The notes under the pieces were generated by a model. It was not told where the DNA came from, made no database searches, and saw only the letters and a program-made list of their open reading frames with translations. From NCBI GenBank assembly GCA_045124035.1, contig JBGVLC010000032.1:30427-94426 (forward strand): DNA of 64,000 nt, written 5' to 3'. Both the position numbers and the translations under genes were made by a program. The DNA comes from Ruminococcus sp. (lineage in GTDB: Bacteria > Bacillota > Clostridia > Oscillospirales > Acutalibacteraceae). This document shows, one piece after another, positions 24,795 to 41,054 of the stretch (its first letter is position 1; each line of letters opens with the position of its first letter).

Positions 24795-25508
24795 ATGAAA
24801 AAATTATTATTAATTTTACTTGCACTTGTGATGTGTATGACATTTGTCACAGGTTGTGGCAACGATGTTGTATTCTCAGGTGAAACAGAATTACAGGGCG
24901 GAGTTTCTGCCGACGACGGAGGTAACAAAGAAATGAACACAGACGCATTACTTAACATCAACGATATCAAAACTGTTGACAATCCTGTTGTTGACGATGA
25001 TTATGCAACAAAAGATCCACAAAAGGGTGAAACTGTTGCTGTTATCCACACAAGTATGGGCGACATCTCTATGAGATTTTTAGACGAGGTAGCTCCTCTT
25101 GCTACTAACAACTTCATCGCTCTCGCTGAAGCTGGCAGATATGACAACACTATCTTCCACAGAGTTATCAACAACTTTATGATTCAGGGTGGCGACTATA
25201 CAAACTTCAACGGCACAGGCGGTGTTTCAGCTTATGGTGTTGAGTTTCCTAACGAGGTTTCTGAATACGCTTCAAACGTAAGAGGTTCAGTTGCTATGGC
25301 TAACGCTGGTCCTGACACAAACGGCAGCCAGTTCTACATCAACCAGTGCTACAACGACAACGCATATCTTGACGGCGGTTACACAGTATTCGGCTGGGTT
25401 TATGAGGGTATGGACGTTGTTGACGCTATCGCAAATGTTCAGACAGCTGCAGGTGACAGACCTGTTGAAGATGTTACTATCGAGTACATCGAAGTTTTAG
25501 AATATTGA
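24795..25508 (+). CDS. Cyclophilin-type peptidyl-prolyl isomerase, lipoprotein
   Basis: Lipobox VTGC; FHRVINNFMIQGGD, AMANAGPDTNGSQFYI. Confidence 0.92.
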   Translation: MKKLLLILLALVMCMTFVTGCGNDVVFSGETELQGGVSADDGGNKEMNTDALLNINDIKTVDNPVVDDDYATKDPQKGETVAVIHTSMGDISMRFLDEVAPLATNNFIALAEAGRYDNTIFHRVINNFMIQGGDYTNFNGTGGVSAYGVEFPNEVSEYASNVRGSVAMANAGPDTNGSQFYINQCYNDNAYLDGGYTVFGWVYEGMDVVDAIANVQTAAGDRPVEDVTIEYIEVLEY

Positions 25509-40063: not shown

Positions 40064-40092
40064 TTGACAACTTGGGTTTAGTTTGCTATAAT
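40064..40092 (+). promoter_or_regulatory. Consensus SigA promoter for the tRNA-Leu locus
   Basis: TTGACA-N17-TATAAT. Confidence 0.85.
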
Positions 40093-40114: not shown

Positions 40115-40300
40115 GCAGGTATGGCGGAATTGGTAATAGAGCGACCGCTGCCTGTGGCAGATAAAGGGAGCGATATGCTGTCTGAAATAACGAGCATCGG
40201 CGAAGTACTTCAGCACGAGACAGGGCGACTATATTTCAGACCGGACGACGCATAGCGTCTGTGTTGCTGTTGTTTATCTATGTTACCATTCGCTCTTAAT
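40115..40300 (+). other. tRNA-Leu 5' fragment (19 nt) followed by a structured insert of about 165 nt
   Basis: GCAGGTATGGCGGAATTGG, then hairpins CTGCC/GGCAG, GTCTGAAATA/TATTTCAGAC and GACGC/GCGTC. Confidence 0.6.
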
Positions 40301-40311
40301 TCAATTAATAT

Positions 40312-40394
40312 GCAGGTATGGCGGAATTGGCAGACGCGTATGGTTCTGTCTACGCCCCCTCGGTGGACTTGCAAATTAAGTTCACTATCCTGCA
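40312..40394 (+). pseudogene. tRNA-Leu-like element: conserved 5' half, replaced 3' half
   Basis: GCAGGTATGGCGGAATTGGCAGACGCGTATGGTTC matches the intact tRNA from position 8; the element ends in TCCTGCA and has no TTC T-loop or CCA. Confidence 0.6.
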
Positions 40395-40472
40395 TAAATA
40401 ATGTGGATTAAGCGAAACGCTCCACCTCGGACACTCCGGCCGTGTAAAATCTACGGAGTAAAAATTTAATAT

Positions 40473-40559
40473 GCACCTGTGGCGGAATTGGCAGACGCGT
40501 ATGGTTCAGGTCCATATCTTTTCACGAAGGTGCAGGTTCAAGTCCTGTCAGGTGCACCA
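40473..40559 (+). tRNA. tRNA-Leu(CAG)
   Basis: Acceptor stem GCACCTG/CAGGTGC, anticodon stem TATGG/CCATA with loop TTCAGGT, long variable arm, GGTTCAAGTCC T arm, encoded CCA. Confidence 0.95.
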
Positions 40560-40562
40560 GTA

Positions 40563-40602
40563 TGAGTGTTCATAACGTATTTAAGTTATGAACACTCTTT
40601 TT
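40563..40602 (+). terminator. Terminator after the tRNA
   Basis: GAGTGTTCATAAC/GTTATGAACACTC stem plus T tract. Confidence 0.85.
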
Positions 40603-40663
40603 TATTCAAATTCTTCTAATATGTATGCGTGAGCAGGTTATGTGCCTGCTCACTTTTTTGTTA

Positions 40664-41054
40664 TTATGCTGACTTTCTTGGGATATACTCAACCTCAACA
40701 CCTATGCGTGTGTCGGCTTTGTAATTTTCATCTTCGGGCAACATTGGAATGTTAATAAACCCGACAAAGCGGTAGTATATAACAAGTTCTTGAGTATAGC
40801 ATTTGTTTCCGCCTTGCTTTTCGTGAACATCAATATGGTCAATGAGTTCTCGAAGCATTGGTGCTGTAAGAATTCTCATTTCCATAAACTTTCGGACAGC
40901 TTTGATGAAATCATCTTTGTCTTGCTTCATTTCACCGATTTTGGAAAGACGTTCTCTGTACTCAGCAATGTTGCTTTTTAGTTCAAGTCGCTCTGTTTCA
41001 TATTTACGGAGCAACTCCATAAACATCTCGTCGCTGACTTTGCCTGTTACATTA
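40664..41054 (-). pseudogene. C-terminal remnant of a large serine recombinase (DUF4368-type tail)
   Basis: NVTGKVSDEMFMELLRKYETE..LRELIDHIDVHE..QELVIYYRFVGFI; an in-frame stop lies just upstream, and the catalytic and recombinase domains are absent. Confidence 0.75.

Follow-up and report, generated by a model that had tools for sequence, protein, structure and literature searches.

An 83-nt pseudo-cloverleaf upstream of tRNA-Leu(CAG) in a Ruminococcus sp. is probably the junction of a mobile element inserted in a tRNA anticodon loop

The locus discussed here is in a window (the whole stretch of DNA that was analysed, 64,000 nt) from the draft genome of a Ruminococcus sp., referred to below as G000. 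The genes upstream of it, for a LicD protein, an IspD-like protein and an alcohol dehydrogenase, are ordinary, and there are dockerin and cohesin amylase genes in the surroundings, which suggest an organism like Ruminococcus bromii. A sigma-70-type promoter at 40064..40092 on the forward strand, which we take to be chromosomal, matches the consensus at 12 of 12 positions and has a TG extension. It now heads an array, all on the forward strand, comprising an A unit, a B unit, a leader and a tRNA gene, and is present at the same position upstream of the A unit in G013, G018, G041 and G140.

The A unit (40115..40311) consists of the first 19 nt of tRNA-Leu (40115-40133), a structured RNA of about 110-130 nt in the position of the D loop (about 40134-40262) and a tail. 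The B unit starts with positions 1-35 of a tRNA-Leu(CAG) of what we call type i, with acceptor strand GCAGGTA (40312..40346), and continues with a segment that is not tRNA (40347..40402), homologues of which were found in 17 units. The pseudo-cloverleaf of the original prediction, at 40312-40394, takes its "new 3' half" from this segment. Next is the leader (40403..40472), with a P1 hairpin (GTGGA at 40403-40407 with TCCAC at 40421-40425), the motif CCUCGG, a P2 hairpin (40433-40438 with 40454-40459) with the loop CCGUGUAAAA, and an A/T-rich linker.

The tRNA-Leu(CAG) gene itself (40473..40559) is of a different allele, type iii, with acceptor strand GCACCTG and a different variable arm. It is the single tRNA that ARAGORN finds in the window, scores 52.4 bits with the Rfam tRNA model, and is the only intact tRNA-Leu(CAG) found in G000. 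It is followed by two terminator-like hairpins (40564..40653, forward strand), in repeated sequence that is also present beside other tRNAs and on contig C22. Beyond these, on the reverse strand and thus convergent with the tRNA, there is a 120-aa C-terminal remnant of a large serine recombinase (LSR) with a DUF4368 domain (40664..41026).

The original prediction was that the 83-nt unit shares its upstream flank and 5' part with the intact tRNA, and this is so: 40305-40346 is repeated at 40466-40507 with 39 of 42 bases identical, flank included (repeat family D2), and the first 19 nt of tRNA-Leu at 40115-40133 make a third copy (repeat family D1). The predicted fold also holds up, as the minimum free energy structure includes both the acceptor-like closure and the long 3' hairpin. 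At -31.1 kcal/mol it is well below the shuffled sequences (-22.6 +/- 2.9; z -2.98), of which 1 in 200 had an equally stable fold.

It was further suggested that the unit is a tRNA mimic, acting as a decoy or a processing signal. If it were functional, selection would keep it, for instance to decoy RNase P, a synthetase or a T-box, or to guide the processing of the downstream tRNA. The stable fold speaks for this, as does its place in one transcription unit with the only tRNA-Leu(CAG), and in the genus B-type units are present in about 40 of 151 genomes. However the 83-nt unit has no T-loop and no CCA end, is not called by ARAGORN, and does not match the Rfam tRNA model even at E <= 10; it was for this reason, and for the lack of covariation described next, that we rejected it as a tRNA or tRNA-like gene.

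For comparison we defined a B-type unit as a tRNA 5' half up to the anticodon loop followed by the conserved non-tRNA segment, and aligned 17 of them. Over the three proposed helices 68% of cells are paired, as against 67% in shuffles, and 136 of 500 shuffles reach 68%. The T-arm-like helix (helix 3) is paired in just 51% of cells, and the acceptor-like helix (helix 1) has no compensatory or double-sided changes at all. In the only copy with a changed 5' strand, which derives from the other allele (G009b), the acceptor-like helix does not follow the change and loses pairs 4 and 5. The sole pairing that is kept is a 4-bp hairpin in the segment downstream of the tRNA half, paired in 96% of cells, and there the changes are one-sided only. 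The earlier argument that pairing had outlived the replacement of the sequence is thus true of this single sequence but not across its homologues. There are also many species in which the tRNA has its leader and no B-type unit. We consider it very unlikely that the unit is a mimic, as the junction model set out below accounts for every feature.

The hairpins in the spacer between the pseudo-cloverleaf and the intact tRNA are indeed present and have an origin of their own. We compared about 45 tRNA-Leu loci from the genus plus one from another family. In the simplest of them (G142, G042, G141, G017, G155, G159 and G127) there is a promoter, a leader of about 65 nt and an uninterrupted tRNA, and the leader precedes tRNA-Leu in most of the 45 genus loci, those with uninterrupted genes included. 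It lies directly upstream of both tRNA-Leu(CAG) and tRNA-Leu(TAG) across the genus and in the genome from the other family. An alignment of 41 leaders (A2) gives the P1 hairpin, an invariant CCUCGG and the P2 hairpin with its loop, CCGUGUAAAA, also invariant. The spacer hairpins are this normal leader of tRNA-Leu genes in the genus and not products of decay of a scar. The spacer alone is not unusually stable (z -1.36). In the window the leader precedes the tRNA that we think was brought in by the element.

With regard to the P2 stem, the consensus fold picked only invariant pairs because MAFFT misaligns the variable P2 strands, and P2 was therefore scored by script. There are 34 distinct versions of the stem among the 41 leaders, and the matched helix averages 6.1 bp as against 5.1 bp with mismatched partners; the covariation support is modest because most versions are CU-rich and mismatched partners pair fairly well too. 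The CCUCGG motif and the P2 loop could also pair with each other, which would give a pseudoknot with P2. None of the A body (40134-40262), the B unit or the leader matches an Rfam family at E <= 10.

The main evidence on the nature of the unit is from relatives with an A unit and an intact tRNA. In G013, G018, G041 and G044 the sequence is colinear with the window from the upstream gene and stops being so exactly at 40346, and the tRNA 3' halves of these genomes align with another contig of G000, C31. A pattern search of G000 for the type-i 3' end gave two copies, both on C31. The start of each is in the anticodon loop, and we call the roughly 120 nt before it X. In G013, G018 and G044 a short downstream stretch also aligns with C31, mostly at copy 2. 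The window sequence from 40312 to 40346 joined to the C31 3' half is exactly the intact tRNA of G013, and X ends in 19 nt that match the reverse complement of 40347-40365 at 17 of 19 positions. The arms at both G000 junctions abut a TC dinucleotide (40345-40346 on the forward strand in the window; U33-C34 of the tRNA), and these 2 nt are all that the junctions share as a core. The host tRNA is rebuilt at neither junction, as there is no tRNA call at the 83-nt unit and neither of the C31 junctions is called as an intact tRNA. Each C31 unit has a promoter-like sequence (TTGTAA, 16 nt, TACAAT, with a TG) and a terminator-like hairpin after the 3' half.

Since colinearity ends at 40346 and the 3' halves of the relatives align to C31, we interpret the 83-nt unit as attL and the C31 units as attR-type junctions of insertions in the anticodon loop. 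The 5' half of the resident type-i gene (40312..40346) would be the B arm of attL and 40347..40402 its P' arm, derived from the element. Overall we put at roughly 80% the probability that the pseudo-cloverleaf is attL, left by a mobile element that entered the anticodon loop of a resident tRNA-Leu(CAG), most likely by means of an LSR acting at TC.

In G000 attL is on contig C32 (70738-70791) and attR on C31 (about 25080-25160), which are separate contigs, and the two may have been rearranged since insertion. Synteny of the downstream flank is confined to short matches of 48-136 nt and the end of a neighbouring dockerin-domain gene. At gene level there were only short non-coding matches 3' of the displaced 3' half and a generic similarity of dockerin modules. 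Exact-pattern scans of genome and viral collections for a free attP (P-TC-P') gave no match.

Other explanations of the same arrangement need to be considered. One is local tandem duplication of the leader and tRNA by slippage or unequal crossing-over, with decay of the upstream 3' half and no mobile element. The copies do have a regular 161-nt spacing, in the window and in G009, and by eye the P' segment partly resembles the leader. However decay would not keep 35 of 35 bases of the 5' half with the 3' half replaced at one sharp point, and the exact missing 3' half is found elsewhere, beside an inverted copy of the junction sequence. Further, the 5' half of the unit and the downstream tRNA are different alleles, types i and iii, and there are recombinase and relaxase genes adjacent in relatives. 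These facts make duplication highly improbable.

Another is a split tRNA. In Nanoarchaeum there are split tRNA genes in which the halves are joined by the splicing endonuclease at a bulge-helix-bulge formed by complementary extensions, and one could imagine the 5' half with P' and the 3' half with P annealing by their 17-19-nt complementary stretches into a two-piece tRNA-Leu in the same way. The complementary extensions, the promoter-like and terminator-like sites that the 3' halves have of their own, and the exact match of the joined halves to an intact tRNA all fit such a scheme. But any recombinase site with dyad symmetry will have complementary arms of this kind, there is an intact tRNA-Leu(CAG) in the genome, and no 3' half was found in G012. 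The splicing endonuclease that split halves need is not known from bacteria. We regard this as extremely improbable, the least probable of the alternatives.

Two further candidates were considered and rejected. The inverted repeats brought to mind a transposon with TGT...ACA ends and a 2-bp target duplication, but in relatives the neighbouring enzyme is a serine recombinase, and in G019 the arms are 9 nt from the core and not at the very ends. The segments are not long enough to be a group I intron or a split intron of tRNA-Leu, and there is no match to an Rfam intron model.

The C31 region has other features that we record here. X with the tRNA 3' half occurs there as two direct copies, and the 20 kb that separate them (G000:C31:4840-25000; L096, L097) have genes like those of defence islands, for an SNF2-type helicase, a DUF2779/Cas4-like protein, a WYL regulator, an AAA (MoxR-like) protein with a VWA metallopeptidase, and a DnaB-like helicase, with a Fic protein gene just upstream, and resemble a further island. 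The T-arm and acceptor end of tRNA-Leu also recur, as short inverted copies, 40-70 nt 3' of displaced halves (L106 at about 1690-1720, and L113); these copies are probably junctions of another type of element that uses the T-loop region.

The recombinase evidence is best seen in G019, where a single contig (G019:C3) has promoter, leader, 5' half, P', leader, tRNA, LSR, relaxase and DUF927-like protein in that order, and P plus the 3' half about 22.5 kb further on in the same orientation. The LSR is of 569 aa, convergent to the tRNA, and has Resolvase, Recombinase and Zn-ribbon domains. G042 has the G019 site uninterrupted, with the same promoter, leader and tRNA, and colinearity of the two ends at tRNA position 39. 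The half-sites of G019 differ in sequence from those of G000 but have the same geometry, with inverted arms of 13 nt that are both 9 nt away from the same TC. The shared core of G019-type junctions is 6 nt. LSRs of the G019 family, or remnants of them, adjoin the tRNA in G071 (99% identity), G066 (71%), G050 (74%) and G012, and in G095 one with 65% identity is beside tRNA-Leu(TAG). In G060, which has a P' like that of the window, the adjacent LSR is 58% identical and broken by a stop.

These observations bear on the possibility that the junction is as we describe but was made by a tyrosine recombinase whose overlap region is the anticodon loop. Tyrosine integrases do classically use this loop as one of their sublocations in tRNA genes, and the 6-nt shared core of G019-type junctions would suit such an enzyme. 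Against this, window-type junctions share TC only, the half-sites are long inverted repeats centred on TC, and the enzyme gene adjacent to the tRNA in G019, G071, G066, G050, G095 and G060 is a serine recombinase. Among the genes of the G019 contig scanned with Pfam there was no tyrosine integrase, nor were there phage structural genes. A tyrosine recombinase is in our view unlikely, and an LSR remains the preferred enzyme.

In the six relatives just listed the cognate LSR is near the att site. In the case of G000 the LSR is assigned by analogy with these relatives because no LSR of the G019 family remains there: there are only distant paralogues, the best with 39% identity (partial) or 31% over nearly full length, and the remnant adjoining the window tRNA is of the other, DUF4368 type, a family different from that linked to the anticodon loop. 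Relatives of the DUF4368 remnant have Recombinase, Zn-ribbon and DUF4368 domains, plus Resolvase in a neighbouring frame, and those in L003 and L010 are both frame-split.

The DUF4368 family has its own association with tRNA genes. The segment 40560-41054, comprising the terminator region and the DUF4368 fragment, is repeated as an 84% identical copy at G000:C22:12148-12647. DUF4368-family recombinases lie 3' of several tRNAs in the genus; in G001 the gene is convergent to tRNA-Leu, in G016 to tRNA-Pro. In the two genes of this family whose reading frame was examined, those of G001 and C22, the coding sequence is divided between two frames. This suggests a second family of serine-recombinase elements that lands 3' of tRNA genes.

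Bringing this together, the free element would have, in order, a promoter and the leader-like X, P-TC-P', a leader and a tRNA-Leu(CAG). On recombining with the anticodon stem-loop, the element would split the resident gene at TC (U33-C34), so that the chromosomal promoter, leader and 5' half would then precede P', the leader and the tRNA of the element. The element would not rebuild the tRNA that it cuts; its own complete tRNA-Leu(CAG), with leader, would be just inside its left end and would land behind the chromosomal tRNA promoter. The outward-facing promoter of the element would end up before the orphaned 3' half, and this old 3' half with its matching P half-site would be what is on C31 as attR. 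We infer the crossover position, the exchange of promoters and the functional replacement of the old tRNA from the arrangement of the parts. That the type-iii tRNA at 40473-40559 was carried by the inserted element is likewise what the arrangement implies, and an attL-type unit is upstream of a type-iii tRNA in 13 of the 14 genomes whose loci were examined.

The 83-nt unit is then best read as an insertion scar of serial integration and not as a working tRNA mimic, and its fold as a by-product of putting the 5' strand of a real tRNA next to a partly palindromic recombinase site and flanking DNA of the element. The original prediction had offered a scar of repeated integration as one of its options, and it is this option that is borne out by the finding of the breakpoint, the matching other half, the inverted-repeat half-sites and the recombinase genes.

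With regard to repeated insertion, G009 has two B units, the second with a type-iii 5' strand, and also holds P plus a type-iii 3' half, the pattern that a second insertion into the tRNA of the first element would leave. The A unit of the window (40115-40311) is another, older layer, a 5' fragment with a structured RNA in its D loop.

The A body, which follows the 19-nt tRNA fragment, was also looked at in its own right. From 26 copies (alignment A3) RNAalifold predicts 26 pairs, and at 14 of these there are compensatory changes. Several genomes of the genus have more than one copy, with up to 9 matches, and in G129 the element forms a tandem array of four 112-nt units preceded by a promoter. 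In G135, G145, G092, G022 and G166 it cleanly interrupts the D loop of a B-type unit. Homologues are given in alignment A3 and at L088:416-861. The A body is possibly a small RNA not described before, or else a mobile RNA element. A reading frame of 48 codons across the A unit, from 40110, was considered as a small protein gene and rejected, as by eye the homologues in L002 and L009 have stops in frame.

A broader proposal can be made, for which we see the chances as about even. It is that a family of mobilizable elements with LSRs, in Ruminococcus-like Clostridia of the gut, has the anticodon loop of tRNA-Leu as its target, that insertion there destroys the gene and places a tRNA-Leu of the element behind the host tRNA promoter, and that later copies insert into the tRNA of the previous element. 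In that case the only tRNA-Leu(CAG) of the host would be one supplied by the element, and this dependence would amount to a tRNA-based addiction with serial gene replacement.

The junction scar is itself ordinary, and what the locus documents is of moderate interest. Insertions of this type explain why there are several tRNA-Leu(CAG) alleles and stacked 5' fragments in the genus, and this is relevant to the annotation of tRNA genes and genomic islands in its genomes. The locus also provides natural attB/attP pairs for new LSRs, which are sought as tools for genome engineering.

It remains to compare the locus with known systems. In classical islands and prophages with tyrosine integrases the attP carries the 3' part of the tRNA, the gene is restored on integration, and a leftover 3' fragment is found at the far end. 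Our locus resembles these in having a tRNA as landing site, direct repeats of part of the tRNA, and tandem accretion at one tRNA, but differs in that the leftover beside the live tRNA is a 5' half and that the gene is cut and not restored.

The integrative mobilizable elements of Firmicutes that use serine recombinases (the Tn4451 family and others, reviewed in PMC5704250) are closer in several respects. They share with our locus direct junction repeats that are very short, an insertion point within a gene and not at its 3' end, and a core of LSR and relaxase, and the dyad-symmetric attP, 2-bp shared core and unrestored gene that we describe fit elements of this type. The G019-type element, with its relaxase, looks like an integrative mobilizable element. 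The targets disrupted by the elements in that review are protein genes that are dispensable to the host, whereas the target here is a tRNA gene, the loss of which appears to be offset by the tRNA of the element.

The nearest parallel to that aspect is the tRNA-dependent lysogeny of actinobacteriophages (Guerrero-Bustamante and Hatfull 2024, PMC10865867), in which attB is inside a host tRNA gene that is not rebuilt, and a phage tRNA of the same isotype compensates; these are temperate phages of Mycobacterium with a tyrosine integrase and a core of about 10 bp. As in that system, the host tRNA of the window is rebuilt at neither junction, and a tRNA-Leu(CAG) is directly inside attL in both the window and G019, that of the window being the only intact copy found in G000. 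In contrast the associated enzyme is an LSR and the core is of 2 bp (window) or 6 bp (G019), the neighbouring genes in G019 are for a serine recombinase, a relaxase and a DUF927-like protein and not those of a temperate phage, and the hosts are gut Clostridia. A further difference is that the replacement tRNA is directly beside attP, from where it would take over the chromosomal promoter. The locus thus shares the logic of tRNA-dependent lysogeny but is not a member of that system as defined. Disruption and replacement with addiction has so far been described only for tyrosine-integrase phages of actinobacteria, and if it is true here, the strategy extends to another class of recombinase, another type of element and the gut Clostridia.
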